Positions 1 to 22,292 of a stretch of DNA of 64,000 nucleotides are shown here, piece by piece. The first letter of the stretch is position 1. The number at the start of each line of letters is the position of its first letter. A program made the position numbers and the translations under genes. The notes beneath the pieces are model-generated. The model did not search any database. It had not been told where the DNA came from and worked only from the letters and a program-made list of their open reading frames with translations. Origin of the DNA: Akkermansiaceae bacterium (GTDB lineage: Bacteria > Verrucomicrobiota > Verrucomicrobiia > Verrucomicrobiales > Akkermansiaceae); the NCBI GenBank assembly GCA_031374665.1, contig JANMGO010000038.1, forward strand, positions 330-64,329, read 5' to 3'.

Positions 1-2356
1 CGGCGGTGGCTTGACCAAGACCGGAGCTGGAACACTTTTGCTTTCAAATACGAATACCTACACCGGTGTCACCACTGTCAGTGCTGGCATTCTGCGAGTC
101 AGCACCCTCGCCAACGCCAGCTCGAACAGCAATCTCGGGGCCTTTGCAGCTGCCGGAGCGGGTGGTATTTCCCTCAACGGCGGCACGCTCCAATACACGG
201 GTGCAAGCGGTGTCTCAGTGGACCGTGGCTTCACTTTGGCCGCCGCCAGCACGATTGACGTGAATCCCGCTAGCACCAGCTTGACTCTTGGCGCATCGTC
301 TCTTGGTGCATTTACACTCAACGTCACAGCCGGCAGCGGCAGCAGCCTCAGCCTCGGTGCACTCACCCTGACGGGCGCGGCAACCCTGAACCCAACCACA
401 GCGAATCTTACCGTCGCCTCGGTCACTGGGACGAATACAAACCTGACGCTCGGTGGCACCTCCACTGGCAACTCGGTTACGAATGCGATCGCCACCGGCA
501 CCGGCACCCTCACCAAGTCCAACATCGGCACCTGGGTGCTCAGCGGGGATAGCAACTCCTTTACTGGAACCACCGCACTCAGCGGGGGAGGCAAGCTGGT
601 TCTCGATTACACCAGCGATACGACCAAGCTCGCCAACGGTGCTGCGCTAACTCTTGGAGGCGGAGAAATTACGCTCCGTGGCGGCAGTCACCTCGAAACG
701 GTTGGCTCGCTGACCATCGGCAACGGTGCTCACACTTCCGTCACCCGCGATGGAGGCACGGCCAAGCTTGCCTTTGGCGTGATGACGAGAGGGCAAAGTG
801 CCGGCGGGACCATGTCGCTCGCCGAAGACAGTCTTGCCACCACAACAACTCCTGTTTTTAGAGGCATCCTGGGAGGTAGTATCACCGTAGGGTCGAACTG
901 GGCGAAAGTGGACGGCTCTAACAATATTATTGCTCTGGTGTCCGGAGATTACACAGCATTGCCCATCACCGCTACGGACGGAGTTTCAAATTATAATATA
1001 TCGGGCTCGCAGACTCATACTGGAACTGCGTCAATGAATACCCTGCGCATTGAAGGAACTGGCATTACCGACCAAACACTGGATTTGGGTACGAACGCCT
1101 TGAATGTATCAACAGTGACAGGCGCCGGCACCCTCACTAACTCCGGTGGCATTCTCTATGCCGGTGGTGGAACTAACAACTACACAATCACGAGTAGTGG
1201 AGCTGTGGGAGGCCAGAACGGCAACCAGGAACTGATCATCCATACCTACACTGGTACCTTGACTCTGGATATGGTTGTCGCAACGGGCTCTTCCGGTTCT
1301 GGCCTGACCAAAGCTGGCGTGGGAAAATTGATTCTCACCAAAGCTGGCACATACACCGGTGCCACATTCGTCAACCAAGGTGTTCTGCAACTTAGGAATA
1401 ATGCGGCAGCCGGCACGACCGGTGCCATCACCGTCCAGAACGGTGCCGCTCTCGAACTCGCAAATACCGTTGCTATTGGAGCCAAGGCTCTGACCCTCAC
1501 CGGCACTGGTATTTCCGATGCTGGCGCCCTGCGCAACGTCGCCAGCAACACCAGCAGCTATGCTGGAGCGATCACCATTGGCGCCGGCGGCGCTCGCATC
1601 AACTCGGATGCCAGCGGCGCGCTGACCCTCACCGGTGGCGTCGTCACTTCCGCCTTCAACGACGTTACCTTCGGTGGAGCAGGTAATACAACCGTCTCGA
1701 CCACAGCGATCAGCGGAGCGGGTGGCCTTGTCAAGGATGGTAACGGCAGCCTCACTCTCAGCATTACCAACACCTATACCGGAGCAACCAACGTAAACGC
1801 TGGCACACTCGTCGTGAACGGTAACATCTCTACCAGTATTCTCACAACCGTCAGTGGCACAGGCACGATAGGCGGTTCAGGAACCGTCGGCGCACTGACG
1901 ATTGCTGCAGGCGGTAACCACAACCCTGGCAACAGCCCGGGCATCATGAACACCGGCAACTACACCATGGCGGGGACTTTGAATATCGAAGCCATCGGCA
2001 ACACTGCTGGCGTTACAGGCTACGACCAAGTGAATGTCACCGGTAATATGAACCTCAGCGGCAACCTCGTCACAGACTTCACTGCAGGCACCTACGCCAA
2101 CGGAAACTTGCTCTTCATCCTTCTCAACGACGGAAGTGACGCCATCACCGGCACCTTCAACGGTTTGGCGCAAGGCGCTGTTGTGACCAACTACGGCGGC
2201 TACGACTGGCAGATCAGTTACGTGGCGAATGCGGGAACCACCAGCTTCACCGGCGGCAATGACGTCGCGCTGATGGCAGTTGTGCCTATCCCCGAGCCTA
2301 GCACCGCGCTCCTTGGTGGACTCAGTGTCCTCCTCCTTTTCCGCCGCCGCAGATAG
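1..2356 (+). CDS. Autotransporter-associated beta-strand repeat protein with C-terminal PEP-CTERM sorting signal (5' end runs off the window)
   Basis: The frame is open back to base 2 (GGG-LTKTGAGTLLLSNTNTYTG...), so the listed start at 11 is only an internal TTG. It has many G-x-GTL-x-L-x(3)-NTYTG-x-T-x-V-x-x-G-x-L repeat units. The C-terminus VPIPEPSTALLGGLSVLLLFRRRR is a PEP motif, a TM helix and an Arg cluster. Confidence 0.85.
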   Translation, partial: GGGLTKTGAGTLLLSNTNTYTGVTTVSAGILRVSTLANASSNSNLGAFAAAGAGGISLNGGTLQYTGASGVSVDRGFTLAAASTIDVNPASTSLTLGASSLGAFTLNVTAGSGSSLSLGALTLTGAATLNPTTANLTVASVTGTNTNLTLGGTSTGNSVTNAIATGTGTLTKSNIGTWVLSGDSNSFTGTTALSGGGKLVLDYTSDTTKLANGAALTLGGGEITLRGGSHLETVGSLTIGNGAHTSVTRDGGTAKLAFGVMTRGQSAGGTMSLAEDSLATTTTPVFRGILGGSITVGSNWAKVDGSNNIIALVSGDYTALPITATDGVSNYNISGSQTHTGTASMNTLRIEGTGITDQTLDLGTNALNVSTVTGAGTLTNSGGILYAGGGTNNYTITSSGAVGGQNGNQELIIHTYTGTLTLDMVVATGSSGSGLTKAGVGKLILTKAGTYTGATFVNQGVLQLRNNAAAGTTGAITVQNGAALELANTVAIGAKALTLTGTGISDAGALRNVASNTSSYAGAITIGAGGARINSDASGALTLTGGVVTSAFNDVTFGGAGNTTVSTTAISGAGGLVKDGNGSLTLSITNTYTGATNVNAGTLVVNGNISTSILTTVSGTGTIGGSGTVGALTIAAGGNHNPGNSPGIMNTGNYTMAGTLNIEAIGNTAGVTGYDQVNVTGNMNLSGNLVTDFTAGTYANGNLLFILLNDGSDAITGTFNGLAQGAVVTNYGGYDWQISYVANAGTTSFTGGNDVALMAVVPIPEPSTALLGGLSVLLLFRRRR

Positions 2357-2565
2357 CCCGGCGGATCTGGCTGGTCCGCCGACTTCTCACCTGAGCATAA
2401 ACTTATAACTTAAAACGAAAATGATACGCGCTTTGGGTTTCGCTGCCTCAAACACAACGCCTTTTTACCGCCATGCGGCGGATCCGTGGGCTTGCCTGGC
2501 GGTCCCCACTGCCCGTTTTAAGCTCAAAAACCGATATTCTTCTTCCGCCTCAAATCATCCAATCC

Positions 2566-5500
2566 ATGACACAGATTCTTCCCGCGCTCATTTGCCTCGG
2601 CCTTGCCGCGACGTTCGCCTCGGCCCAAACCTCCTTCTACGCCCAGCCCCCGTTGTTTTCCTACAGCCCGGATGAGACGAAGTCGTTGACCCCCATCAAG
2701 TACCTCGGCGCGGTCGGCATGGGCATTGATCTGATCCAGCCAGCTTTCCGGATGCAAATCAACCTCATCGAGGAGGGCTCGCCTGCCGCCGCCACCGGCA
2801 AGCTCAAAGTCGGACAGATGATCGAATCGATCAATGGCCAAAAGCTTAAAGACATCGACCCGCGCATGCAGCTCGGCCAGATCATTGAGAAAGCCGAAGC
2901 CACAGATGGCATCGTCCAGTTCGCCATTGAAGGTGAGACCGCGCCGGTCATCGTGAAAATCGCAGTCCTCGGTGCCTACAGCCCGACCTGGCCGCTGAAC
3001 TGCAAGAAGTCGGACAAGATCGTCCGAGGCCTCGCCGAGTATCTCAAAAAACCCGGAACCGACAAAGGCTTCGCCGACATCGGCATGCTTTTCCTTCTTT
3101 CTACCGGCGAGGAGCAGGACCTCGAAACCGTGAAAAACTGGGCGCGCGAAGTCAAACCCGTGGGCATCACCTGGACCTTCGGCTATGGCGGCATCGGTCT
3201 TTGCGAATACTACCTCCGCACCGGCGACAAGGAAGCTTTAGACAATGTCCAGGCGTGGGCGGATAAAATCGTCGCCACCCAGTACCTCGACGCTTGGGCG
3301 CCGCGCATGGGACCACCCGGGATCACCTACGGCAACGGCCACCTCAATGCCTCCTCCACCCACATGCTCACCGTGCTGCTTCTCGCCAAGGAGTGCGGCG
3401 CGGAAATCCCCGACCGCGCCCTGCTCGGCGCACTCCGCCATTTCTATCGCCTCGCCGGCCACGGCAACAATCCCTACGGCGACGGCGTTCCCGAGGACGG
3501 CTTCGTCGATAATGGCAAAAACGGCCTGCTCGCCTTCGCCATGGCCGCCGCAGCCACGCTCACGCCCGATGGCGAAAACTCGCTCTACGCCAAAGCCCGC
3601 GATGTGATGGCCATGACCAGCTTCTACAACACGCCCTTCATGCTCCGCGGTCACACTGGCGGCGGCATCGGCGAGATCTGGCGCAGCTCCGCCATGGGCT
3701 TGCTCGATGGCAAGCGCCCCCACCACTACCGCGAGTTCATGGATCAACGGAAATGGCACTACGACATGTCCCGCCGCTTCGATGGTTCGTTAGCAATCCT
3801 CGATGGCGAAGGCTACGATCATGTAAAATGGGGCACGCCCTATGCCCTCACTTACACCGTGCCGCGCAAAACCCTCCGCATCACCGGCGCGCCGCCCAGC
3901 AAGTTCTCGAAACCCTATCAACTCCCAAAACTCATCTGGGGCACCGAGGCCGACGCGGAATTTCTCTCGCTCGATCCCGTCACGGATCCCTCAGGCCAGA
4001 CGCCCGATCATTCGAAGGAAACGATTGCCGCGGATGCCTCCATGGCACTCATCCGCCAACTCCCGAAATGGACCGAAAAGGAGATCCGCTACTACCTCCA
4101 CCATCAGGATCACAACGTCCGCCACATCGCCGCCGGCCGCCTGATGGAACTTCCTAACAAGGATAAACTCGCCGTCGAACTCCTCCATCACCCGTCCGCC
4201 CGCATCCGCCGCGCCATCTTCGCGGAATACGCCAACGTCAAGAAAGCCCTGCCCGTCACCCGCGAAGTGTTCGACCTCGCGATCCAAGCACTTGCCGACC
4301 CCAAGGAATCCCTCTGGGTCCGCGAGGGAGCTATGGGCACCATCGCCCGCGGCAAAACCGAATGGCTCAGCCCCCAAGTCGACCTCATCCTGTCCTATCT
4401 CAAAAACGAAGATTCGTGGCTCCAGCGCGGCGCCTTGTTCGCGCTCACTCCGCTCATCGCGGAACCGGGCACCTATCAAAAAGTCCTCCCCGCCGTCGGC
4501 GAAGTTCTCCGCACCAACCAACGCGCGTCGATCACCGTCGGCCTCATGCCCGCCATGAGAGCAAACCTCAGCGCCGCCAGCCCGGCCGTGCAACAACTTG
4601 CCGTCGCCATCCTCAAGGAAAGCTACCTCGGCTATGCCGGCGTGGACACCGCTCCCGGCGGCTTCAATATTGCCAGCGTGAAAGCCGGTCACCTCACCGC
4701 CCTGGCGGCATCTCTCAAGGACGTTCCCGGCGGCATCGACGTGCTCTATCAGATATCCCGCGAGAAATTCCCGGACCAGACCCTGCCTTACCGGGAAATG
4801 ATCCTCACCGCCGACCCCGCCAGCATGGGAGCGGAACTCAGGAAGGTCATCCCGCCTCTCGTCATGGACGAACTCATTCCCGAATACGTCGGTAAAAACT
4901 GGGCCAGACTCCAGGACGCCATCGCTAACAAAACACAAGCTTTCACCGCCGGTGCTCCGGGCGATGCCATCCAGGATCTCGTTGCCCTCTATGCACGTGC
5001 CGGCGATTCCGAATACAACTGGAAGATGTTCGACGATCTCCGCAACGCCGAGTGGAACTACCACAGCTTCGATCCCATCGCCGCCGAACAGGTGCCCTTC
5101 GACCAGCTCATCACCCGCTACCGCAAAGTCACCCTGCCTAAGGGCATGGAAAATTGGTTTGCCCCGGAATTCGATCCCGTCAAAGCTGGTTGGAAACGCG
5201 GCAAGAGCCCCTTCGGTCATCTCGCCGGAAAACTCCCCGACAAGCAGATCATGAAATGCGATGCGAATGCCTGTGTCGGCCCGTCCTGCTGGGGAGCCAC
5301 TCCCATCAACACGTTATGGGAAAAGGAAGTTCTGCTTCTCCACGGCACCTTCAAGGTTCCGGCGCTCCAATCCGGCCACCGCTACCGCATCCGGGTCAAC
5401 GATGGCAACCACGTCGGCAGCGGCGGGGGACACATCATCTACATCAACGGCAAACCCCTCGCCGAAATGGACGTGTGCTACGGCCGCGGCTCCGGCGACA

Positions 5501-6123
5501 TACCCAAGGGATCCTTCATCACCGCCGATTTCCTCAAGGATTTCCAGGGCCAAGATGTCCACATCGCCCTCAAGACCTTCCTGCGTTACAACGACAAATA
5601 CGCCAGCAAGCCCACCAGCAAGATCTCCCAGGGCAAGATAAGCATCCACCTTGAGGAGCAAAAACTCCCGCCGATGGGCGACGACCTCCGCCGTAAATCT
5701 GCTGCGATCATCCCGATGATCAGCTCGCAATGGCAGGCACTCTTCGACCCGGAAAGCAACGAACTGTCCGACGGCGAAGGAATGTTCCGCTGGGACGGTA
5801 AATTCACGCCCAACACCGCCATCACCGGTTCATGGAAACTCGTCGGCCAAGTCGCTGAAATCAGCGCCTTCGATCCCGCCAAAAAATCTCCAGCCATCAG
5901 ACCTCTGCTCTCGGCTATCACATTCAACAACGATGGGACTACCACGGATTCCGCATGGCTCTGGTCCGGTGACACGCTCATGGACCTCACCCGTTTTCAA
6001 GTCATGAAGATGGCCACCAAGGAAATCGACGGCAAAAACCACCTCTTCATCGAGTCCGGTGGCTTCGGCCCGAAAAACCCGCTCGGCTGGAAACCTACCC
6101 TCCTCGTCTTTCAACCCCAATAA
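2566..6123 (+). CDS. Secreted PDZ / alpha-alpha-toroid-like / HEAT-repeat protein, paralogue 1, with extra C-terminal beta-rich modules; function unknown
   Basis: This is the 1216-aa ORF. I place the start at Met32 (ATG 2566), which gives a signal peptide MTQILPALICLGLAATFASAQ. There is a PDZ-like unit (IEEGSPAAATGKLKVGQMIESINGQKL). Motifs shared with 6169-8508 and 9783-13619 include VLGAYSPTWPLNCKKSD and CEYYLRTGD. HEAT-like repeats follow (HNVRHIAAGRLMEL, SARIRRAIFAEY, SWLQRGALFAL). Confidence 0.8.
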   Translation: MTQILPALICLGLAATFASAQTSFYAQPPLFSYSPDETKSLTPIKYLGAVGMGIDLIQPAFRMQINLIEEGSPAAATGKLKVGQMIESINGQKLKDIDPRMQLGQIIEKAEATDGIVQFAIEGETAPVIVKIAVLGAYSPTWPLNCKKSDKIVRGLAEYLKKPGTDKGFADIGMLFLLSTGEEQDLETVKNWAREVKPVGITWTFGYGGIGLCEYYLRTGDKEALDNVQAWADKIVATQYLDAWAPRMGPPGITYGNGHLNASSTHMLTVLLLAKECGAEIPDRALLGALRHFYRLAGHGNNPYGDGVPEDGFVDNGKNGLLAFAMAAAATLTPDGENSLYAKARDVMAMTSFYNTPFMLRGHTGGGIGEIWRSSAMGLLDGKRPHHYREFMDQRKWHYDMSRRFDGSLAILDGEGYDHVKWGTPYALTYTVPRKTLRITGAPPSKFSKPYQLPKLIWGTEADAEFLSLDPVTDPSGQTPDHSKETIAADASMALIRQLPKWTEKEIRYYLHHQDHNVRHIAAGRLMELPNKDKLAVELLHHPSARIRRAIFAEYANVKKALPVTREVFDLAIQALADPKESLWVREGAMGTIARGKTEWLSPQVDLILSYLKNEDSWLQRGALFALTPLIAEPGTYQKVLPAVGEVLRTNQRASITVGLMPAMRANLSAASPAVQQLAVAILKESYLGYAGVDTAPGGFNIASVKAGHLTALAASLKDVPGGIDVLYQISREKFPDQTLPYREMILTADPASMGAELRKVIPPLVMDELIPEYVGKNWARLQDAIANKTQAFTAGAPGDAIQDLVALYARAGDSEYNWKMFDDLRNAEWNYHSFDPIAAEQVPFDQLITRYRKVTLPKGMENWFAPEFDPVKAGWKRGKSPFGHLAGKLPDKQIMKCDANACVGPSCWGATPINTLWEKEVLLLHGTFKVPALQSGHRYRIRVNDGNHVGSGGGHIIYINGKPLAEMDVCYGRGSGDIPKGSFITADFLKDFQGQDVHIALKTFLRYNDKYASKPTSKISQGKISIHLEEQKLPPMGDDLRRKSAAIIPMISSQWQALFDPESNELSDGEGMFRWDGKFTPNTAITGSWKLVGQVAEISAFDPAKKSPAIRPLLSAITFNNDGTTTDSAWLWSGDTLMDLTRFQVMKMATKEIDGKNHLFIESGGFGPKNPLGWKPTLLVFQPQ

Positions 6124-6168
6124 CGAAGCGGGGGCTAAAAAATCTCTAACAAAAATTTCCACTCCTTT

Positions 6169-8508
6169 ATGAAAACCCGAAAATTTCTCCGGCATCTCCA
6201 AGCATACGGGTCACCGTTGCATGCGGTCATTGTGGTGCTGACGGTAGTGCTCATTACGTCTTCCATGACATTTGCCGCGAAGCCAGCGCCACCCACGGGT
6301 TGGCATCTGGGGCCGTCGGGATTATTCGGCAAGCTCGGCAAGACAGACATCACGGTGACTTATGTCACTGAGGGTTCGCCTGCGGTTGGGAAAATTAATG
6401 TGGGGGACGTGATCGTGTCCGCCGCAGGAAAAAAATTCGAAGGGGACATTCGTAAGCAGTTTGCAGAAGCCATCAACACCGCCGAGGCTGCTGCCGATGG
6501 GTCATTGGTTCTTCAACTCAAGGACGGCAAAGATGTTAGTCTAACACTTCAAAAGCTGGGTGCCTACAGCGCTACCGCGCCGTATGATTGTAAAAAGTCC
6601 GATGCCATTATTGCGAATGCGGCCGAACACATCGTGAAGAGCAAGGATTACGGTCGATACGGATTTGGATTGATGGGTTTGATGGCAACCGGCGAAGCAT
6701 CCCATCTCGAAGTGGTCAAATCCGCGATTCACGAACTGGATTGGGCCAAGCCGGATGTAGAGCTGACCTTGGGGCCTGCCGGTAGCGCTTGGGCTTATGG
6801 CTATCAGAACATCTTGTTGTGCGAATACTATTTGCGCACAAATGACGCCTACGTGTTGCCTGCGATAAAGAAGTTTACGGTGACGCTTGCCAAGGGACGG
6901 GATGCGGCAGGTCTATGGGGACATCGAATGGCGGATCCGGAGGCAAATCGCGGGCAGTTGCACGGCAGGTTGTATGGCTACGCGGTAATGAATTCATCCA
7001 GTTTACCTTGCTACATCTCATTGTTGTTAGCTCAAAAATGTGGCGTCAAAGATCCGGAGCTTACGGCGGCAATTGAGCAGGGCCATACGTTCTACGGCAG
7101 TTTTGTCGGCAAGGGAACCTTGCCCTATGGAGTGCATGATCCGAATTCTAAATCGTTCAACAACAATGGCATGAGTGGCATGGCGGCCGTCGCGCTCTCG
7201 CTTGCAGAGGACAAGCCAGGCGCGGCATTTTTCTCGCGGATGTCATTGGCATCCACCAACACCATGGAAACGGGTCATACCGGTCATTTTTTCAACCAGC
7301 TATGGACGGGTCCTGGTGCCGGACTTGCTGGGCCGAGTGCAACGAAGGTTTTTTTCAAAGAAACGATCTGGCTTCACACGCTCAATCGCAAATGGGACGG
7401 AGGTTTCACTTATGATAGTGGGGAAGGGTATTCGTATAGCGGATTCAACGATGCTGCATCTCATTTACTGAACTATTGCGTCCCCCGTCACCAACTCTAC
7501 ATCAATGGGAAAGGCGCGGATAAATCGATATTCCTGTCTGCGGAGGCCGCTCAAAAAACCGCAGGTCTTGCGACATTGGATGTCAAAAAGCTCAGCGATG
7601 ATGAGTTGTTAGCCATGTTAGATCATGAGATGCCGAAAGTGCGGCAGGAGGCTGTATGGCAACTCCGCGGAAGGCCTCACAAATTCGTCAATGACGTGGT
7701 CAAAATGCTGACGCATGGCACCGACTTGCAGCGCAAGAGCGCCATCGAGTATTTCGGATACAAGTGCCCACCTGAGCAAGTCAGCTTGGCAACCGAAGCA
7801 TTGGCTGCGCTCCTGAAAGACAGCAAGCAAGAGATGTCGATGAGGGCGGATATCGCAGGTGCGCTCGCTTGTTTGGGTGCGGGAGCTTATCCGTATTACC
7901 CAGATTTGTTGAAGTTTGTGTTAGAGAAAAAACCTGAGGATAGGCTCGGTGAAATTGATCTAAAATTGGGCCGCGCTTTGACGACTATGTGCGCTGATCC
8001 GTATGCCGCTGGATTGGTGAAGGACAAAGAGTTGTTTTACGCTGCGGCAAACAAGTTGATGGCCCACAAGCGGGCCTATGGCCGTTCGACGGGTGTCAAA
8101 ATGATTTCAGCGGTGCCGCTGGAAGATTTTCATTGGGTGGCGGACAGCGTCAAGATCATCATGGACGATCAGGAGCTCACCTACACAAGCTACCACAATT
8201 TCGATCCCAAGATCGAATCGGTCGGCATTTACGCCCGTTTGAACATTCAAGGTGGTATTGAAGCCGCGTTGGCCGCATTCGATGTAGAGACGGGCAAAGG
8301 TGCATTCAAAATCCGGATGCTGATGAGTGTGCTTCCCGTCTATGGAGCAAACGCTAAATATATCCTCCCGCAAGTGAAGGAGATCAATCCCGGAAAATTC
8401 AAAGGCCAATGGGACAAGATCATCGCTGATATTGAAAAAGCAGATCCCGTAGCTGCAAAGAAGTTACTCACCTTCGAAGAAGCAAAAAACTTTGGTAAGG
8501 GGAAGTGA
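6169..8508 (+). CDS. Secreted PDZ / alpha-alpha-toroid-like / HEAT-repeat protein, paralogue 2; function unknown
   Basis: 779-aa ORF with an N-terminal hydrophobic signal or anchor. It has a PDZ-like unit (VTEGSPAVGKINVGDVIVSAAGKKF), the shared motifs KLGAYSATAPYDCKKSD, CEYYLRTND, LLLAQKCGV, NNNGMSG, GHTGHF and WDGGFTYD, and C-terminal HEAT-like repeats (MPKVRQEAVWQLRG, LQRKSAIEYFG). Confidence 0.8.
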   Translation: MKTRKFLRHLQAYGSPLHAVIVVLTVVLITSSMTFAAKPAPPTGWHLGPSGLFGKLGKTDITVTYVTEGSPAVGKINVGDVIVSAAGKKFEGDIRKQFAEAINTAEAAADGSLVLQLKDGKDVSLTLQKLGAYSATAPYDCKKSDAIIANAAEHIVKSKDYGRYGFGLMGLMATGEASHLEVVKSAIHELDWAKPDVELTLGPAGSAWAYGYQNILLCEYYLRTNDAYVLPAIKKFTVTLAKGRDAAGLWGHRMADPEANRGQLHGRLYGYAVMNSSSLPCYISLLLAQKCGVKDPELTAAIEQGHTFYGSFVGKGTLPYGVHDPNSKSFNNNGMSGMAAVALSLAEDKPGAAFFSRMSLASTNTMETGHTGHFFNQLWTGPGAGLAGPSATKVFFKETIWLHTLNRKWDGGFTYDSGEGYSYSGFNDAASHLLNYCVPRHQLYINGKGADKSIFLSAEAAQKTAGLATLDVKKLSDDELLAMLDHEMPKVRQEAVWQLRGRPHKFVNDVVKMLTHGTDLQRKSAIEYFGYKCPPEQVSLATEALAALLKDSKQEMSMRADIAGALACLGAGAYPYYPDLLKFVLEKKPEDRLGEIDLKLGRALTTMCADPYAAGLVKDKELFYAAANKLMAHKRAYGRSTGVKMISAVPLEDFHWVADSVKIIMDDQELTYTSYHNFDPKIESVGIYARLNIQGGIEAALAAFDVETGKGAFKIRMLMSVLPVYGANAKYILPQVKEINPGKFKGQWDKIIADIEKADPVAAKKLLTFEEAKNFGKGK

Positions 8509-8614
8509 CAGAGCCACCGACAAACGGCGTATCTCTGCATCACATAAAAATAATCCAGTCCTTATAAAAATCTCTGACACATTGAGCACATCCACTATAA
8601 AAACTTCTAACATC

Positions 8615-9772
8615 ATGAAATTCCCCATCCTTTTCGGCATCGCTGCCATGACGTTTGTCACCTCGATCGAGGCCAAACCACTTAAAGTTTTCATCCTCGC
8701 CGGCCAGTCCAATATGGAGGGTCATGCAGAAAGCTATACTTTCCCCTACATTGCCAAGGATCCGAATACAGCTGACCTCTACAAGCAGATGGTGGATGCT
8801 GATGGCAAACCGGTGGTCTGCAAGGACGTTTGGATTTCCTACGCTTACGGCGATTTCGGCGGCAATCCAGTCGGCCGCAAGGCAGGCAATCTAACTGCGG
8901 GTTGGGGCAGCCAGCATCACAACATTTGCAAGATTGGGCCCGAGTTCACCTTTGGCATCACGATGCAAAAGCAATTGGGCGAGCCTATCCTTCTGATCAA
9001 GAACGCTTGGGGCGGCAAGAGCCTGCTGGTTGATTTCCGTCCACCCAGCGCCGGTGAACCGACCGATCCGAAGCATAAGGAAAACGCAGGCAAGGCTTAC
9101 CGAGAAATGATGTCGCACGTGAAGGACGTGCTGGCGGATCCCAAAAAGGTCTATCCGGATTATGATCCGAAGGAGGGCTTTGAGATTGCAGGCTTCGTCT
9201 GGTTCCAAGGATTCAATGACCTCGTGGGTCCTTATCCCGGCGACCCGAACAAAAAGGGCTGCAAGGACTACACCGAGTATAGCCGTTTGTTGGCATGCCT
9301 CATCCGTGATTTGCGCAAAGAACTCAACACACCGAAGATGCCTTTCGTCACAGGTGTCATCGGCGTGGGCGGAGAAACGACAGGCGACGGCACCGAGTCC
9401 TTCCGCAATGCGATGGCAGCGCCGGGAGAGATGGATGAATTCAAGGGCACTGTGGCCAACGTTTACACCCACAAGTTCTGGCCTTACGACATCGACGCGG
9501 CAAAGCTTAAGCTGGCCGCAGCCACCGCCGAGTTGAGTAAACAAAACAACGTGCTCAAAATGCGTGCTAAGAAGGGCGAGGACGTCAAGGAGGAGAGCGC
9601 CAAACTTGGCGCCGAGATAGCAGAGGTCAGCGCTAAGGCACTCACCGAGGACGAGAAGCTTCTGATTAAAACCGGCGCCTCGAATCAAGGGTTCCACTAC
9701 TACGGTTCCGGGAAGTTTTTCGCTCAAGCCGGCAAAGCCTTCGCGGAGGCTTTGTTAGATTTAAAGAAATAA
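8615..9772 (+). CDS. SASA-domain (sialate O-acetylesterase-like, SGNH-type) carbohydrate esterase, secreted
   Basis: ATG at 8615 gives the signal peptide MKFPILFGIAAMTFVTSIEA. The family-typical block KVFILAGQSNMEGH lies directly after it. Further blocks are KNAWGGKSL, VWFQGFNDL and a late GFHYYG. A Lys/Glu/Ala-rich helical stretch (AAKLKLAAATAELSKQ...EIAEVSAKAL) lies before the last block. Confidence 0.75.
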   Translation: MKFPILFGIAAMTFVTSIEAKPLKVFILAGQSNMEGHAESYTFPYIAKDPNTADLYKQMVDADGKPVVCKDVWISYAYGDFGGNPVGRKAGNLTAGWGSQHHNICKIGPEFTFGITMQKQLGEPILLIKNAWGGKSLLVDFRPPSAGEPTDPKHKENAGKAYREMMSHVKDVLADPKKVYPDYDPKEGFEIAGFVWFQGFNDLVGPYPGDPNKKGCKDYTEYSRLLACLIRDLRKELNTPKMPFVTGVIGVGGETTGDGTESFRNAMAAPGEMDEFKGTVANVYTHKFWPYDIDAAKLKLAAATAELSKQNNVLKMRAKKGEDVKEESAKLGAEIAEVSAKALTEDEKLLIKTGASNQGFHYYGSGKFFAQAGKAFAEALLDLKK

Positions 9773-9782
9773 CTCGAGACTC

Positions 9783-12700
9783 ATGAAATCCATATCCCAT
9801 CCTATCATCTCACAATTCACTAACCAACATTGGCACTCCAGAGTCATTTTCGGAGCGCTCGCGTATGGCTTGATGAACTTTACTACTCTATCCGCCAAGG
9901 CTCCGGACTTGACCGCGGGTGAGCCCGCCCCCTTCGGTGATGTATGGTTCAACCTTGGCCCGACCGGTGTGCAGGCATGGGTGTATCGGGGTGAGGATAA
10001 AGATCCTAACAACGCCAAGCGCAAAATGCGGCCAACGGTGGAGACATCCGAATCCCGCCAGATTCTTATCCAAACCATCGAGAAGGGCTCTCCCGCTGAT
10101 GGCATTCTCAATGTGGGTGACGTAATCCTCGGCGCCAATGGCACGGGCGTAAAACCCACGCTATTCTCTGCTGATGCTCGGATCGCATTTGGCCAAGCCA
10201 TCGTTGATGCCGAGGCGTGCAATCCGGGATTATTAAAAATGATTGTTTGGAGAGCAGGTAAAACGAGTGAACTGACGATCACTTTACGGACGATGGGAGC
10301 ATACAGTGCCACAGCTCCCTACAATTGTCCTAAATCCGCGAAAATTCTCGAGGAGAGCCTGGACTACATCATGACCCACGAGAGTGAGGGATTTGCCGGG
10401 ATGTCGACCTTGGCGCTGTTAGCGGGAAATGATCCAAGCAATCCTAAGAACGAAGCTCGTCAGAAGAAAGCTCAAGAGTATGCCCACACTCAGATATTCA
10501 ATCAAAACACGATCGATTTCATCAAGCTTGGCAATGTGGAAGCGGGTGCCAATGTCGCATGGAACCGCGGGTTACGGCTGATTGTCTTATCCGAGTATTA
10601 TCTCAAAACGAAGGATCCACAAGTTCTGCCCACTTTAGAAGCTGTCGCGCTTTCCATCGCCCGCGGTCAGGGTGCCAACGGCGCAGTGGGCCATAAATTC
10701 AACATCAGTCTAAGGGATGGCGTTTACAACGAGCCATTCACGATTGGTTACACCATGAATGCCTCAACCTTGCCGACTGCGTTGGGTTTGGTGCTAGCTC
10801 GGAAATGTGGATTAAGCCTTCCCGAACTTGAGCCTGCCATCGAGCGTGTGGTGCGCACGCTTTCCGCGTCATCCGGCATGGGCACCTTTCACTACTATGT
10901 GGAAGGCGCGGCTCTGGAGAGCGCCAATGAGGACAATGGCAAAAGCGGCCTAGGCGCGCTTTGTTTCGCCATGCAGGATGATCGAACGCAAGAGACTCGG
11001 TTTTTCTCAAAGCTTTGTACAGGCGCGACAATCGACCGCGGCCACGGCCACATCATCAATTATTTCGGCTACATCTGGACGCCACTGGGCGCCAATATCG
11101 GAGGCGAACATGCTGCTGCCGCTTATTTCAATCAGATCAAGCCAGAGATGGATCTCTGCCGCCACTGGGATGGCGGCTTTGAGTATGAACGTTCTAACAA
11201 TGCGAGCAAAGAGCCCACCATGGCCTGCAGTAACATGTGGATGTCAACCGCAGCTATCCTCACCTACGCGGCACCACTGAAACAAATCGAGATCACAGGT
11301 CGGACTTTTTCCAAAAGGCCCGAACTTGTTTTGAACCATAAAGAAGTTGCGGAAGCATTGTTGTCGGACCGTTATGACGCTAAGCAACGCACGACCAAAG
11401 AGCTAATCGATGATCTCAAATCAGACATCCCTAGGCTATCATCAAAATCTGCCATCGAACTCGCTGCTCGCCCCGAAGAATCGAGCAAACTAGCTCCTGA
11501 TCTGATTGAATATTTAAGCCAATCCGAGCCAGCGGAAACGATGGGTATTTGCCGATTTCTCGGTGAAACAAAGGCCGTGGAGGGCATTCCTTCGCTGATT
11601 GGTCTGCTCTCACACAAGGATAAGACGATCCGATACCTGTCAGCGGAAGCTCTAACAAAATATCCCCCAGAAACGCTAACTGCGCACTTGAATACTCTCT
11701 TGAAGATTGTGGCTGCCAATGCGCGTCCAGCCTTTCCGCTGGATCGGGATGACCCCCAGCAGCTTGCCAACCTGATGCTCAACAAAGTGGTGATTGGCAA
11801 TTGGGGAACCTCAGGGCTAATCAACTTGAATATCACTGATGTGGACAGAAATTTGCTCTATCCGGCATTGCGCGCATGGGCAACTCACCCTCATGCGGAG
11901 GCTCGAAATCGAGTAGCACTTGTTTTAAAGAAATTGACTCCTGCGGATGTCATCGCTCTTAGCGATACACTCATCGATTGCGCTGGCGAAACGAGCATCA
12001 CGGGCGGGACGTCAGTGCCGGGTGACACAGCAATTGAATTACTTCTTCGCGAAGGACTGGCCGAAGGTGTGGCGCTAACCAAAACCCAAATGATTAACCT
12101 GAGGTTCAAAAGAATGGATAACACGCTTAAGCTGTTAGAAAAATATGGTGCTTCGGTCGCTACTGTTAAGCCAGATCCAAAAATCGCCGAATTCCTACAA
12201 GACATGCTGGTAGGGAGTTACAACGGCCAAGTTGGCGAACCATACAAAGAACAGATTGCACGGATCCAAAAATCATTGATTACCACAGCCAATCCGCCGG
12301 GCCTCAAGACTCTCAAAGAGTTGGTTTCCATCAATGCTTCCCCACCCGTCATCAAGTCACCAGCAAAACAAACCCAGCTAAAAGCAACCGTCACTGATCT
12401 TGCATCTGGGAAAACGACTTATACTTGGCGAAAAGTGCACGGCCCGGGTGAAGTGACTTACAGCGTCAATGGCAACAGCGAGAGCGGATCAACGACGGTG
12501 AACTTTGATGGAACTCCTGGGCGCTATCTCTTTGAAGTCATAGCGGGGGATTCCAGAAATTTAACTCAGGTCACTGGGACAGTGGCTGTGGAGTTGAGAG
12601 ATGCCACTGGTGCATTACCACCCAACAAACCTCCAATCGTCAGCGCGCAATCGGTAATAGCCGCACAAGCAATTCCAACACCAGTGATTCTAACTGCTAA

Positions 12701-13619
12701 AGATCCTGAAGGTTATGCTCTAGTCTATGAGATCTCCTCTCCACCAGCTAATGGCAAACTTTCTGGCTCCGCTCCGAATTTGACATACTTGTCCGGATTA
12801 CAATTCACAGGTTTAGATAGTTTCTCATACCGTGTGATGGATAGCGATGGCCAGTGGTCAGCTCCAACACCCGTAAATATTACGGTCAAAACGCGCGTCA
12901 CTCCAGTGGGTTTAGCTGTGTATGAAACCTTCGACTATAAAGAGGGCATGCTGAGGGGTGCAACGGGCAGCTCGGAAATTGGCTTCGCTGGCCCTTGGGA
13001 AGCGCATAAGACAAACATAGTTATTCCTAACAGCCTTTCATATGGCGGCATGCCCACAAAAGGAAAGGCAATGAAAACAGGCAAAGGCGCGACGCGTCCC
13101 TTGGATCCTTTGGCATTGGCAGCAAATGGATTATTGAAAGACGACGCCGAACTATGGCTCTGCTTCCAGGTTCAATACCCTAATGATGGTGAGAGAAAAA
13201 GCCTAGATGTGGTGTTAGCTAACAACAGCCGTGATGAAATCACGGGCTTGATCAAAAATGACAGTGCCCAGTTAGGTCAGGGCGTTGGCGTGAATATCGG
13301 CATGGGAACTAAAGCGACTTTATATGAAAGTGTGGCACCTGCAGAAAATGAATTTGGCAATGGAAACGGTCTCAAACAAGGTGAGACTGGCATCATCGTC
13401 GCTAAGATGAAGTGGGGTGAAGATCTCGATATTGTGGAAGTCTATATTCCCCAAGCCGATATGACTTTGACCAAACCCATATCAACATTGCATACGAAAG
13501 TGGAACAATCCACCTTCGATACCATGATCATTGGTGGTTCGGTCTTACTCGATGAGATCCGCATGGGACCCACACTGGAAAGCGTATTGCTGGGCACTGT
13601 GCCAATGACCCAGAAATGA
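9783..13619 (+). CDS. Secreted PDZ / alpha-alpha-toroid-like / HEAT-repeat protein, paralogue 3, with Ig/cadherin-like repeats and a C-terminal LamG/ConA-like module; function unknown
   Basis: 1278-aa ORF. It has a PDZ-like unit (IEKGSPADGILNVGDVILGANG) and the shared motifs TMGAYSATAPYNCPKSA, SEYYLKTKD, LVLARKCGL, EDNGKSG, GHGHI and WDGGFEYE. HEAT-like repeats follow (DKTIRYLSAEAL, AEARNRVALVL). Two Ig-like units follow (TYTWRKVHGPGEVTY...; NKPPIVSAQ...DPEGYALVYEISSPPANGKLSG...DSFSYRVMDSDG). The terminal ~230 aa begin YETFDYKEG...GFAGPWEA. Confidence 0.8.
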   Translation: MKSISHPIISQFTNQHWHSRVIFGALAYGLMNFTTLSAKAPDLTAGEPAPFGDVWFNLGPTGVQAWVYRGEDKDPNNAKRKMRPTVETSESRQILIQTIEKGSPADGILNVGDVILGANGTGVKPTLFSADARIAFGQAIVDAEACNPGLLKMIVWRAGKTSELTITLRTMGAYSATAPYNCPKSAKILEESLDYIMTHESEGFAGMSTLALLAGNDPSNPKNEARQKKAQEYAHTQIFNQNTIDFIKLGNVEAGANVAWNRGLRLIVLSEYYLKTKDPQVLPTLEAVALSIARGQGANGAVGHKFNISLRDGVYNEPFTIGYTMNASTLPTALGLVLARKCGLSLPELEPAIERVVRTLSASSGMGTFHYYVEGAALESANEDNGKSGLGALCFAMQDDRTQETRFFSKLCTGATIDRGHGHIINYFGYIWTPLGANIGGEHAAAAYFNQIKPEMDLCRHWDGGFEYERSNNASKEPTMACSNMWMSTAAILTYAAPLKQIEITGRTFSKRPELVLNHKEVAEALLSDRYDAKQRTTKELIDDLKSDIPRLSSKSAIELAARPEESSKLAPDLIEYLSQSEPAETMGICRFLGETKAVEGIPSLIGLLSHKDKTIRYLSAEALTKYPPETLTAHLNTLLKIVAANARPAFPLDRDDPQQLANLMLNKVVIGNWGTSGLINLNITDVDRNLLYPALRAWATHPHAEARNRVALVLKKLTPADVIALSDTLIDCAGETSITGGTSVPGDTAIELLLREGLAEGVALTKTQMINLRFKRMDNTLKLLEKYGASVATVKPDPKIAEFLQDMLVGSYNGQVGEPYKEQIARIQKSLITTANPPGLKTLKELVSINASPPVIKSPAKQTQLKATVTDLASGKTTYTWRKVHGPGEVTYSVNGNSESGSTTVNFDGTPGRYLFEVIAGDSRNLTQVTGTVAVELRDATGALPPNKPPIVSAQSVIAAQAIPTPVILTAKDPEGYALVYEISSPPANGKLSGSAPNLTYLSGLQFTGLDSFSYRVMDSDGQWSAPTPVNITVKTRVTPVGLAVYETFDYKEGMLRGATGSSEIGFAGPWEAHKTNIVIPNSLSYGGMPTKGKAMKTGKGATRPLDPLALAANGLLKDDAELWLCFQVQYPNDGERKSLDVVLANNSRDEITGLIKNDSAQLGQGVGVNIGMGTKATLYESVAPAENEFGNGNGLKQGETGIIVAKMKWGEDLDIVEVYIPQADMTLTKPISTLHTKVEQSTFDTMIIGGSVLLDEIRMGPTLESVLLGTVPMTQK

Positions 13620-13876
13620 ATACGATCGCGCGACTCGGACAAAGACAGCTCTCGTCCGAGCTCGGAAACCAGCATCCCAGAATGGGCACATCACCTTGGG
13701 ATGGCGCCAGACGGGGTGCCCAGGTCATCCAATGCCGGTGCGAAACTTTATTCATTTCAGGATAGTAGTGCCGGAGCTTCGTAAGTTTTCCCTCTTGAAA
13801 TGTGCGGCTGCTCGATTAGAAATGTAATTACAAAAGCAGTATATTCCATTTCAGTTCCCCCAGAACCAAGTATCAG

Positions 13877-16800
13877 ATGAAGCAAAACAAAAAAACCCAA
13901 AACGGTTTCGCTCTGATCGCCACGATCTTATTGATGGTCCTTTTGGCGATCATTACAGTAGGCATGCTGAGCCTATCTGTCGTCACTCTTCGCACGGCTA
14001 ATCAAGATTCTGCTCAAGCTAGCGCTCGCGCCAATGCCCGCATGGCTTTGATGATCGCGATTGGTGAGCTCCAAAAACAAATGGGGCCAGATCAACGGAT
14101 TTCAGCAAATAGCGCTATCCTTGATGCGTCCACAGTGCAGCACTCGCACTGGCTTGGAGTTTGGAATTCATGGAAAGCTGGAGTGGGTGAATCCAGCCAA
14201 CATAGCACGATTCAGGGTGTCACAGACAATATGGCTCCGTCCTACCTGCCGAACCGCTCGGACTACTTTCGCAAATGGCTCGTTTCTCTCAACGAGAATG
14301 AAATGGCTAATATCTCCTCTCCAAAAACTTTATCGCTAAGCGCATCGCACATGCCGGGCCCTAGTGAAGATGCCATTTTCCTCGTGGCCGATGGCTCACT
14401 TGGCGAGGGAGACGAAAAGAAACCAGACTATGTCGCCGCGCGCATTTTAGAGGTTAAGGATAAGGGCACCTCTGAAGTCATCGGCCGCTACAGCTGGTGG
14501 ATCGGTGATGAAAGTCAGAAGGCACGCATCATGGATGATTCTTTCCTGCCCCCGCCTGCTCCCGCCACCGCTCCTACACTGACATCCGCAGATAAAATCT
14601 ATCGCTCGCAAGCTCCCGCCTCCATGGGAACTAATACAATCAGCGGCCTAAAAGATGTCACCGTTGACTCCCAGTTCGCCGCACTCCCGTCCCTTGCGAC
14701 ACTCGATCTCGTCACCGGCGCCAAAGATCGCCCGGCACAGCAGAATTTTTACGATGCCACTCCTTTCTCTTTCAGCATTCTAACAGATGTTCGCGAAGGC
14801 GGAATGAAGCGGGATTTATCAACGATTCTCGAACAACCGATAAGCCGGACGAATTCGGGAAATGAATACATGCTCTATACATTTGATGACCCTCGCTGGC
14901 CAAACGACCGAAGCCACTCGCGTGTCCCCATCCAAGATCTCGCCGCATACTACCAGCTTTATAATGACATCAAACCCACTGAAACCGGCTATGATGTCAA
15001 TGGTCGCGAAGGTGTCCGCTATACATCCACTCAGCTAGCCGGCGCCATCCAGGTGAATGTGCCGGATTTTGACGGTGGTGCGAAAGTCCGGCAGCGAAGC
15101 CTGCGAGAATACACCACGCTCTACAAGCAGCCGGTCGTTACGAAATTCCAGTATCTGTTAGCCCTAGGGGCTCAACCAATCACTCAATTGGATCGTGATA
15201 ACATCACAGGCCAAAATAATGGCACAGTACCTGCGCCATCAGGCCCTGGTACCCAAGCCCTCGTACCTGTTCCAGACACAGATACCCATAGACTACGCAT
15301 TGGCGTGATGCCCGTGGTGACCCTATGGAATCCAAGTAATATGCCGATGGTTATGGATCGAGCTCAGGTTTTTCGCGTGAGCAACGCCCCGCCGATCAAG
15401 CTTCAGTGGAGGAAATACCGTACTACTCCAAGCACCGCGGCTTGGCGCAATGGAAGTGGAACCTCCACTGCACCGACCCCCCCAAATACTTATGTATCTG
15501 CTTGGTTCAGTCCGGGTTTTTTACACAATGCAGGTATCCAGGCCTTTGGCTTTGGCGGAGGATTTGCTTTCGTCGAGATGGTTATCGCTGGCACCACAAC
15601 TGTCCCAAAACCTGTAGTCTTCCAACCTGGCGAGGTGAAAACCTTCAGCCTTGTACCTACGTTTGGAGCTAAATTGAATGGGACTGGAAATGTCAACGGC
15701 ATTATGGCAGAAAATGCTATCAGAGACACCGTAGAGGGTTACGATCCATATGGCTTTTTCATCGCGGGGCATTCTGCTCCCTATGGCGGCTCTGGCGCCT
15801 GTCCTGATATCTTCTTTTTTACAAATGGACCCCAGAAAGGAGCAACTTTGGTTTTCAATAAAGATGACAAATTTTCCCTGTTTGTTGACAAAGAAGCAGA
15901 CGTTGGTGGTTGGGCAAGTGGGGAGAGGGTCAGCCCAGGCGGTTATGTTAGAGGGTCAGGCTTCGCCCTTACCATGGTTGACCCAGGATTCAGAGCCAAT
16001 GTGAATGATTATTTATGGTGGCTCGATCACTACTCGATGCTCAGCCGTCATGGCGGTACTAATACAGCCGCAATTGCTTTCAATAATGGTCTCATTGCAC
16101 CAGGTTTTCCCGGAGGAACGACGCCCATTGCATATGACGTTGCCACCAATGCCATCTCTGGCTCTCAAATCATCGGCGCGAGCGAGGACACCCCTCCCCA
16201 GGTCAGAGGTCTGATGGAATTTTCACTCAGCCTAGGCTGCGAGGCTGGCTCCCTCTCTGCGGGTGGTTATGGCGGTGGGCGCCGCATCGCCAGCCGCCCG
16301 TTTCTTCACTCTGGATTGGGTGCCCCCCCTTTTATCGACCAGTTTAATAAGGCGTCCCTTTACAACTACGGCTGGGATTGGCAACTGAGCAAAGTCAATG
16401 ATATCGAAGACTCCATCATTCAAGCGGAACCAGTCACTGGCAATGGTTTCTTCGGTGGCGGATACACCATCGAAGCCGGAACCACACGAGTTGTGCAACA
16501 AGAAATCCCAGTTCTTCCGGCGATTTCCATTGCAGCACTCAGCCCCGCACGCCTCGGAGGATTCAGCCTCGGCAATTCCAACAACGTGGGTGACGATCCC
16601 TTGATGACTACGCTTTTTGTCAAAGGCTGGCGGGTAAATAGTCCCATAGGGAACGACTACCAGAAGACCACAGCGACTGGACATGGAGGGCTGGCACCAA
16701 ACGTATTGCAATCGGTTGGAAATTCTTACGCGCACCCGAATATCCCTGCAAACTTGGCATTCACCACATGGACTCGCCGTTTTGATGGGGATGTAGGCGA

Positions 16801-22215: not shown

Positions 22216-22292
22216 AGAATGTTTGGTGTCGTCCCTTGCTCTCGTCGAAAGTATCGTTTAGCACATACGAAACCTTTTTTCCTCAAACCTCT

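Follow-up and report, generated by a model that had tools for sequence, protein, structure and literature searches.

The 64,000-nucleotide stretch analyzed here (the window), from a contig of an Akkermansiaceae bacterium, harbors three large genes of the DUF6288 family (Pfam PF19805), whose products are designated P1, P2, and P3, and a gene for a SASA-type O-acetylesterase located between the second and the third. The best explanation of this locus as a whole, and a moderately probable one, is that DUF6288 and the SASA esterase constitute a recurrent cassette for the processing of O-acetylated glycans outside the cell or in the periplasm. It is quite likely that DUF6288 is a carbohydrate-directed module functionally coupled to O-acetylesterases. 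The four genes lie on the forward strand in the order P1, P2, SASA, and P3, separated by spacers of 45, 106, and 10 nt in the list of open reading frames (ORFs), and are probably co-transcribed. The coordinates agree with the preliminary description of the window, which had noted three co-directional genes with a common N-terminal architecture and a SASA gene between the second and the third. The features of the locus are as follows.

2566..6123, + strand: P1, type-1 DUF6288 protein of 1185 amino acids (ORF), with a signal-like N-terminus, PDZ-like unit, linker, predicted (alpha/alpha)6 core, helical repeats, and a C-terminal region of ~430 amino acids
2968..3909, + strand: predicted (alpha/alpha)6 barrel core of P1, amino acids 135–448 (hmmsearch envelope of the core hidden Markov model, HMM; aligns to the modeled P2 core, predicted local distance difference test score, pLDDT, 86.5)
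4837..5679, + strand: C-terminal accessory domain of P1, amino acids ~758–1038 (phmmer; common to the C-terminal part of SASA esterases of 750–800 amino acids elsewhere)
6169..8508, + strand: P2, type-2 DUF6288 protein of 779 amino acids with the minimal architecture of PDZ-like unit, linker, predicted (alpha/alpha)6 core, and HEAT/ARM solenoid
6298..6546, + strand: PDZ-like domain of P2, amino acids ~44–126, with a conserved LGPxG(L/V)xG loop (model; weak PDZ Pfam matches)
6556..7533, + strand: linker and predicted (alpha/alpha)6 barrel core of P2, amino acids 130–455 (separate core model, Foldseek, invariant residues)
7540..8505, + strand: HEAT/ARM-like solenoid of P2, amino acids 458–779 (all-helical in the model; Foldseek; HEAT_2 at 18–20 bits)
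8615..9772, + strand: SASA/CE6-like SGNH O-acetylesterase of 385 amino acids (PF03629; signal-like N-terminus; GQSNM serine motif)
9783..13619, + strand: P3, type-3 DUF6288 protein of 1278 amino acids, with a PDZ-like unit, linker, predicted (alpha/alpha)6 core, HEAT, PKD, and Big_9 domains, and a C-terminal region of ~240 amino acids
10293..11327, + strand: predicted (alpha/alpha)6 barrel core of P3, amino acids 171–515 (core-HMM envelope and core alignment)

All three proteins matched PF19805 from model position 1–2 to position 402 of 402, with scores far above the gathering score of 26.3 bits (P1, 381 bits, E = 8e-114, amino acids 62–442; P2, 433 bits, E = 1e-129; P3, 375 bits, E = 8.5e-112, amino acids 92–507). 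The Pfam model takes in the PDZ-like unit and the helical core together with the LGAYS..P..C.KS linker between them. The motifs quoted earlier were all found in the translations, namely, EEGSPA/TEGSPA/EKGSPA, the LGAYS..P..C.KS linker, (C/S)EYYL(R/K)T.D, LLLAKECGA and its variants, NGKNG/NNGMSG/DNGKSG, GHTG/GHGH, and WDGGF(T/E)Y in P2 and P3. Pairwise alignment confirmed the proposed paralogy, with 32% identity between P1 and P2 (E = 6e-46), 28% between P1 and P3 (E = 2e-24), and 26% between P2 and P3 (E = 3e-58). The alignments extended well beyond the PDZ unit; that of P2 with P3 covered ~770 amino acids and therefore reaches through the HEAT region. The preliminary description could not place the shared architecture in any characterized family. 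No functionally characterized family indeed matched the core, but the family is already catalogued as an unstudied DUF, an outcome which had been foreseen. Homologues carry only the public names "DUF6288 domain-containing protein," "PDZ domain-containing protein," or "hypothetical protein," and NCBIfam contains no model for the family. Literature searches on DUF6288, PF19805, SASA/PDZ/HEAT proteins in taxa of the Planctomycetes–Verrucomicrobia–Chlamydiae (PVC) group, and fucoidan degradation retrieved no paper on DUF6288.

The three proteins share a putative signal peptide, as judged by eye from hydrophobic N-termini ending in FASA/Q, TFA/AK, and LSA/KA. For P1, an alternative upstream ATG at 2473 would yield a protein of 1216 amino acids; the start at 2566 was preferred because orthologues of 88–89% identity measure 1184–1185 amino acids. 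The PDZ-like unit scored near or below the threshold of PF00595 (23.3 bits in P1 against a cut-off of 23.2, 15.0 in P2, and 19.5 in P3), and the best PDB sequence match of P2 was the PDZ domain of YlbL, at a weak E value of 0.0026. In the P2 model, amino acids 44–126 form five strands and one long helix. All members seen contained a PDZ-like domain bearing the conserved LGPxG loop, and in some cases two such domains; by sequence, it is closest to the protease-associated PDZ domains of YlbL, Tsp, and DegP. The HEAT-type repeats reported after the core were borne out by the ARM/HEAT structural matches of the P2 model described below and by a HEAT_2 score of 29.8 bits when the C-terminal part of P3 was scanned alone; P1 and P2 remained sub-threshold (19 and 18 bits against 27.7). 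HEAT_2 was matched in 30 of 38 diverse family representatives, and among type-2 orthologues the HEAT/ARM solenoid holds many invariant Arg, Lys, His, and Asp residues. Pfam also identified in P3 a K319L-like PKD domain at amino acids 857–929 and Big_9 at 948–1027. PDB sequence searches with the C-terminal regions of P1 and P3 returned nothing.

P1, P2, and P3 are, judging from the core alignments, representatives of three anciently diverged subfamilies (types 1, 2, and 3) of a PVC-restricted secreted family. Over 362 aligned cores of all three types, the mean core identity was 79% within type 1, 71% within type 2, and 53% within type 3. Each type has orthologues in both Verrucomicrobiota and Planctomycetota. 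Recent duplication within the locus was hence rejected, as the core identity between types is 29–36% versus 53–79% among the orthologues of each type across phyla, and the earlier reading of the array as a local gene-family expansion gives way to three ancient lineages, each with its own PVC orthologues. Type 2 comprises more than 300 full-length orthologues of ~775 amino acids with 50–60% identity, found in Akkermansiaceae, Luteolibacter, Chthoniobacter, Opitutales, Planctomycetaceae, Phycisphaerae, and Pontiella, with 64% mean column identity across phyla. Type 1 has more than 2000 homologues, among which the orthologues of ~1200 amino acids are 56–59% identical over their full length in Planctomycetota and Verrucomicrobiota. 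The 1499 homologues of type 3 are 35–43% identical and have highly variable C-termini. The cultured Haloferula helveola carries type-1 (including HAHE_27640) and type-3 genes.

A search with the core profile against 1.84 billion representatives retrieved 1592 clusters at E <= 1e-3 and 1134 at E <= 1e-10, corresponding to a family size of ~1100–1600 clusters at 50% identity. No bridge to a known family was found among the 150 core-profile matches listed, all of which were clear DUF6288 members. The core usually begins 130–170 residues from the N-terminus of proteins ranging from ~400 to 4373 amino acids, the giant members bearing long arrays of Big_9, cadherin, and He_PIG domains. The best genome matches, with 91% identity, were freshwater Akkermansiaceae metagenome-assembled genomes. 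One related locus, L066:10001-23332, which contains a P1 orthologue of 88% identity, is organized as type 1, DUF6288 (1000 amino acids), DUF6288 (1028 amino acids), SASA, and SASA. Compared with the array of the window (type 1, type 2, SASA, and type 3), this indicates that paralogue content turns over between close relatives.

The link between DUF6288 and the SASA esterase is evident from sequence similarity, gene order, and gene fusion. The product of the SASA gene matched PF03629 with 71.1 bits (cut-off 24.8; E = 1.4e-19), contains ILAGQSNMEG in its translation, and is distantly related, through weak PDB matches, to the structures 1zmb and 2apj of the carbohydrate esterase (CE) family CE6 type. 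In five distant type-2 contexts, a SASA gene was adjacent in four and a second DUF6288 paralogue was adjacent or close in three. A census of neighbors was made using simple ORF calls on loci retrieved through type-2 sequence patterns. A SASA gene was found in 24 of 52 non-redundant loci, directly beside the DUF6288 gene in 18, and 44 of 45 SASA genes were on the same strand as DUF6288. By gene rank, the SASA share of ORFs fell from 20% at rank 1 to 12, 9, and 9% and finally to 1% at rank >=5 (Fisher p = 6e-6), the enrichment being relative to the ORFs of rank >=5 and not to the genome-wide frequency of SASA genes. For many type-2 genes, no esterase lies in the vicinity. In nine type-3 homologues, SASA is part of the DUF6288 polypeptide itself, and the order DUF6288–HEAT–PKD–SASA was verified in five of them. 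One such fused SASA module, that of the DUF6288 protein P0330, shares 39% identity (E = 2e-44) with the SASA protein of the window. The catalytic fusion partners among the 38 diverse family representatives were exclusively esterases, SASA in three and GDSL in one. A further connection is provided by the C-terminal accessory domain of P1 (amino acids ~758–1038), which has no Pfam or PDB match and is shared with the SASA esterases L029:1884-4148 and L014:1846-4254 (phmmer, E = 1e-55 and 4e-36); it may serve both partners for substrate binding. The proximity of the SASA gene, which had led to the suggestion of a role in processing O-acetylated polymers, is thus conserved in synteny across phyla and in gene fusions and favors glycan processing; the enzymatic activity of DUF6288 itself is a proposal.

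Other genes near DUF6288 were also largely related to carbohydrates. Sulfatases were present in 11 loci, and GHL6 immediately adjoined type-2 genes in six. In one of the six, a single protein of 841 amino acids directly upstream of the type-2 gene (L025:365-2890) matched both sulfatase and GHL6; a free-standing GHL6 gene was adjacent in the five further loci. Glycoside hydrolase (GH) family GH95-like proteins, GH29 fucosidases, GH30, a GH63-like protein, FGE-sulfatase, further GDSL esterases, xylose-isomerase-like TIM proteins, and LacI/GntR-type sugar regulators were also found nearby. These neighbors of the relatives suggest that the target glycans are anionic (sulfated) and contain fucose. 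A family scan of 110 ORFs located <=1.7 kb from DUF6288 genes yielded 116 families, and among the 25 listed there were no recurrent proteases or peptide-modification genes.

Two kinds of proteins of other types were seen in the same surroundings. Proteins of 720–1065 amino acids with HZS_alpha, PD40, and cytochrome c motifs occur near type-2 genes in seven loci (including L026:5986-8511, L027:7055-9580, L029:13516-16713, and L041:2183-4846). In L001–L004, a cytochrome-c-like protein of 765 amino acids and a DUF7133 protein are positioned between SASA and a second DUF6288 gene.

Tertiary structure prediction of P2 by AlphaFold2, built from 39 orthologues, gave a model with a pLDDT of 88.8 and a predicted template modeling score (pTM) of 0.87. 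The model has three parts, a domain of five strands and one helix (amino acids 44–126), paired helices (142–455), and an all-helical C-terminal part. Foldseek with the full model retrieved only ARM/HEAT proteins (designed armadillo proteins, importin, and transportin), with E values down to 7.5e-5 and a probability of 1.0. The core was modeled and searched separately because the C-terminal solenoid swamped the search with the full model. The core model (amino acids 130–455; pLDDT 86.5, pTM 0.91) showed 12–13 helices arranged in hairpins, with loops that are alternately short and long, and its top 50 Foldseek matches were all (alpha/alpha)6 barrels with a probability of 1.0. Dominated by six-hairpin enzymes acting on carbohydrates, these fold-level matches included AprG, GH76 mannanases, GH88, GH105, the polysaccharide lyase (PL) family PL27 enzyme BACCELL_00875, squalene-hopene cyclase, the thioester domains of complement/alpha2-macroglobulin, and cellobiose 2-epimerases. 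The template modeling (TM) scores were 0.5–0.6 for GH76, AprG, the GH88 entry 3wiw, and the epimerases, and lower (0.35–0.41) for PL27 and GH105. The constant unit of DUF6288 is thus predicted to consist of a PDZ-like domain followed by an invariant linker, a six-hairpin (alpha/alpha)6 barrel, and, C-terminally, a solenoid of the HEAT/ARM kind.

The toroid-like fold proposed for the core in the preliminary description was accordingly recovered in the model, whereas the prenyltransferase/terpene-cyclase and thioester leads drawn from it did not withstand the motif searches. Terpene cyclase or prenyltransferase identity was rejected, as none of the cores had a Prenyltrans or SQHop_cyclase Pfam match at E <= 10 and DxDD did not occur in any core; the sole DxDD, in P3 at amino acid 654, lies outside the core. 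Identity with the thioester domains was likewise rejected since CGEQ is absent from P1, P2, and P3, and the similarity is at fold level only. A Pfam scan of the three cores at E <= 10 returned only DUF6288 and one sub-threshold GH88 match (E = 0.06). When PDB sequences were searched with P2 and with two profiles, A1 of the full-length orthologues and A3 of the core, only PDZ domains or noise were returned.

Residue conservation was analyzed on the 362 aligned sequences. In 36 positions that were >=90% conserved, the same residue occurred in all three types. The family-wide invariants, in P2 numbering, include C141, K143, W208, E219, T224, D226, N275, Y320, N333, H370, W379, W401, and R407. Of these, C141, K143, W208, N275, Y320, N333, H370, and R407 are located at the N-terminal ends of odd-numbered helices or in the long loops ahead of these helices, and W379 and W401 lie within helices 9 and 10. 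E219, T224, and D226 form part of the EYYLxTGD helix–turn motif on the short-loop face and are probably structural. In six-hairpin enzymes such as GH8, GH15, and GH88, the active site lies on the face with the odd-helix N-termini and the long loops; by analogy, the long-loop face with the polar invariants of DUF6288 is inferred to be the active face. In the toroid polysaccharide lyases PL5, PL8, PL15, PL17, and PL21, a Tyr and a His are combined in one pocket with an Asn, Arg, or Gln as charge neutralizer. Y320, H370, N275, N333, and R407 were invariant in the 362 sequences, their position on the long-loop face following from the helix topology of the predicted model only. This common set, rich in Tyr, His, Asn, Arg, and Lys, is suggestive of a closer resemblance to the toroid polysaccharide lyases than to classical glycosidases.

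The three types differ at other positions of the presumed pocket. At position 322, type 1 has Asp, type 2 has Val, and type 3 has Glu. Invariance restricted to type 2 was seen for R244, D245, and H373; H252 does not vary in types 2 and 3, and H323, E367, and D416 are constant in type 2 and the prevailing residues (67–88%) in type 3. Such type-fixed differences at pocket positions would imply different specificities fitted on a common scaffold.

On the basis of the above, a mechanism could be envisaged in which the SASA esterase strips the O-acetyl groups off the polymer, after which the chain so exposed enters a pocket on the long-loop face of the DUF6288 barrel, where it is bound and most likely cleaved. 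The pocket would be lined by C141, K143, W208, N275, Y320, N333, H370, and R407, and the role of the PDZ and HEAT parts would be to hold the polymer or to gate its entry. The three subfamilies, differing at pocket positions, would have different specificities. The carboxylate-poor set of Tyr, His, Asn, and Arg would fit beta-elimination, as in a lyase, slightly better than a two-carboxylate hydrolase. That an (alpha/alpha)6 barrel can host a lyase acting by beta-elimination is illustrated by PL27 (PMC8377490). A conservation such as the 64% mean column identity of type 2 is also encountered more typically in enzymes than in binding modules. Judged from these sequence features, catalysis by DUF6288 itself falls just short of being probable, and a lyase activity in particular is doubtful. 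In its most specific form, the proposal can be advanced only tentatively: DUF6288 would found a new catalytic carbohydrate-active family (lyase or unusual hydrolase) with a PDZ-capped and HEAT-flanked barrel pocket containing C141, K143, Y320, H370, and R407, its three subfamilies acting in series with SASA or GDSL esterases on sulfated, acetylated, fucose-rich glycans.

Several points weigh against a glycan-processing cassette with a catalytic barrel. No activity, ligand, or structure was found for any DUF6288 member, nor was any paper. The structural matches of the core are at fold level only (E >= 1.4e-3, TM <=0.60, root mean square deviation 6–7 Å, and 10–15% identity), and neither the Pfam scan nor the comparison of the A3 profile with PDB sequences matched the cores to any GH or PL family. 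The clustering of the invariants in a pocket is deduced from the helix topology of the model and not read off coordinates. The only invariant acids across the family, E219 and D226, are both in the hairpin-turn motif, and no acidic residue is invariant across the three types on the presumed active face, which argues against a standard GH mechanism. GH88, GH105, and Kdu genes usually accompany lyases, and none of GH88, GH105, or KduI/KduD was among the 25 of 116 families listed for the 110 close ORFs, which argues against a lyase. In the gene context, SASA is the only carbohydrate-active neighbor within the window, two type-1 genes stand alone without SASA or clear carbohydrate-active enzyme (CAZyme) neighbors, and the SASA enrichment of the census has the local baseline given above and crude ORF calls behind it. 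Lastly, bacterial PDZ domains usually bind peptide C-termini.

Among the alternatives, the one that survives best, although it is considered unlikely, is that DUF6288 is a non-catalytic glycan-binding or scaffolding module which presents the polymer to the esterase or anchors the cell, the partners doing all the chemistry. It would accommodate the lack of a universally conserved acid on the presumed pocket face, and HEAT repeats are typical interaction scaffolds. In type 3, moreover, the unit sits at the N-terminus as a head carried by long stalks of Ig, cadherin, or PKD repeats, in proteins of up to 4373 amino acids, as in adhesins, and fusion to esterases is also shown by carbohydrate-binding modules. 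However, the core is very highly conserved across phyla in type 1 (79%) and type 2 (71%), an invariant set of Tyr, His, Arg, Cys, and Lys would be unusual for a lectin, the Foldseek matches for the family are enzymes, and many type-2 genes lack a nearby esterase. Catalysis is therefore regarded as somewhat likelier than pure binding because of the extreme conservation, the enzyme-like invariant set, and the enzymatic nature of the structural relatives.

The preliminary description had also offered a PDZ-guided peptide- or protein-processing role, in which the PDZ domain would bind a C-terminus and the solenoid-wrapped barrel would modify or cleave the peptide. The PDZ-like domain is indeed constant in the members seen, its closest relatives are associated with proteases, and the invariant Cys141 and His370 could build a site based on a thiol or a metal. 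The alpha subunit of protein prenyltransferases wraps the barrel of the beta subunit, which offers an analogy for the solenoid, and LanC a further one. The role is nonetheless highly unlikely and found no support beyond the PDZ domain itself. The gene context, which disfavors this alternative as well as the next, is overwhelmingly carbohydrate-related (SASA, GDSL, sulfatase, GHL6, GH29, GH95, GH30, and sugar regulators) with no recurrent proteases; no prenyltransferase/squalene-cyclase or LanC-like Pfam match was listed for the cores, which also lack DxDD; and the proteins are secreted, isoprenoid diphosphates being unavailable outside the cell.

Scarcely credible is a cassette directed at O-acetylated peptidoglycan, in which the SGNH esterase would de-O-acetylate MurNAc, the barrel would act on or bind the glycan strand, and the PDZ and PASTA domains would recognize the stems: SGNH esterases do include O-acetyl-peptidoglycan esterases, PASTA domains (PF03793) are fused to many type-3 proteins, and a PDZ domain could bind stem-peptide carboxylates, but PASTA does not occur in the type-1 and type-2 proteins examined or in any of the three proteins of the window, sulfatases, fucosidases, GHL6, and sugar-responsive regulators do not suit peptidoglycan turnover, and no amidases, lytic transglycosylases, or other muramidases were among the recurrent neighbors in the families listed.

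The proposed DUF6288–SASA cassette was compared with known systems. The six-hairpin CAZymes (GH76, AprG, GH88/GH105, PL27, and the cellobiose 2-epimerases) have the twelve-helix barrel in common with DUF6288 and a similar genomic setting among GHs, esterases, and sulfatases. The EYYLxTGD-type helix–turn motif of DUF6288 resembles the hairpin turns of six-hairpin CAZyme families, the sole computed hint being the sub-threshold GH88 match at E = 0.06. However, no invariant residue of DUF6288, whose set consists of Cys, Lys, Trp, Asn, Tyr, His, and Arg, corresponds in an obvious way to the catalytic Asp pairs of GH76 and GH88, and no six-hairpin family is known to have an obligatory N-terminal PDZ domain and C-terminal HEAT solenoid. 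In multimodular CE–GH or CE–PL CAZymes, which act for example on acetylated xylan or pectin, an esterase is combined with a module that cleaves the backbone, a logic typical where acetyl groups block backbone cleavage. As in DUF6288–SASA, the esterase and its partner occur side by side or in one chain; the difference is that the partner activity of DUF6288 is only proposed and that its esterase is a distant CE6/SASA relative. Protein prenyltransferases, with a beta-subunit barrel and a helical-hairpin alpha subunit, have a similar combination of barrel and solenoid, and squalene-hopene cyclase was among the Foldseek matches. Prenyltransferases and terpene cyclases differ from DUF6288, which has neither the Pfam match nor the core DxDD, is secreted, and lies in a carbohydrate gene context.

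The window thus adds members to a family already catalogued and not a new entity, and in kind DUF6288–SASA is a variant of the esterase-plus-backbone-enzyme logic of glycan-utilization loci and not a categorically new system. New with respect to the sources searched are the predicted six-hairpin fold, the near-constant PDZ–barrel–HEAT architecture, the apparent division into three subfamilies, and the synteny and fusion link to SASA/GDSL esterases. DUF6288 is regarded as a functional module and not as filler because it is widespread, strongly conserved, often multi-copy per locus, and tied to O-acetylesterases. Verrucomicrobiota and Planctomycetota play a major part in the breakdown of recalcitrant sulfated and acetylated polysaccharides of algal and microbial origin, and for many steps of this process no enzyme is known. 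If catalytic, DUF6288 would define a new CAZy family with an unusual PDZ–barrel–HEAT architecture and would improve the annotation of glycan-utilization loci in PVC genomes. The presence of type-1 and type-3 genes in Haloferula helveola makes the hypothesis directly testable in a cultured host.

The base composition of the four genes is not uniform. The GC content and the GC content at third codon positions were 0.599 and 0.762 for P1, 0.515 and 0.579 for P2, 0.540 and 0.671 for SASA, and 0.502 and 0.519 for P3. The break in composition between P1 and its neighbors falls in the 45-nt spacer (6124–6168), and the shift could reflect a separate origin of P1 or a different expression level. A promoter/terminator scan of positions 2200–14200 gave counts at chance level, which were uninformative on operon structure.

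Other genes of the window were also inspected. Upstream of the array, at 11–2356, lies a gene for a PATR (autotransporter-associated repeat) protein whose C-terminus (PIPEPS...RRRR) resembles PEP-CTERM. DUF6288 arrays are flanked by PATR proteins in two other loci as well (L066:4993-8610 and L005:17217-18325), and PATR repeats are fused to some type-3 proteins. Directly 3' of P3, an ORF of 1365 amino acids (13877–17974) has an N-terminus resembling a prepilin/pseudopilin leader (GFALIATILLMVLLAI) and no Pfam match. A secreted-looking protein of 618 amino acids (18803–20659), also without a Pfam match and with only weak, TPR/PPR-like PDB matches, has homologues <=10 kb from type-2 DUF6288 genes in five other loci (L019, L030, L032, L035, and L057), and the homologue in L019 sits between SASA genes. 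This protein may belong to the same functional neighborhood as DUF6288. Further downstream, an ORF of 776 amino acids (22170–24500) showed a sub-threshold match to MG2 (alpha2-macroglobulin), with 21.7 bits against a cut-off of 32.8.

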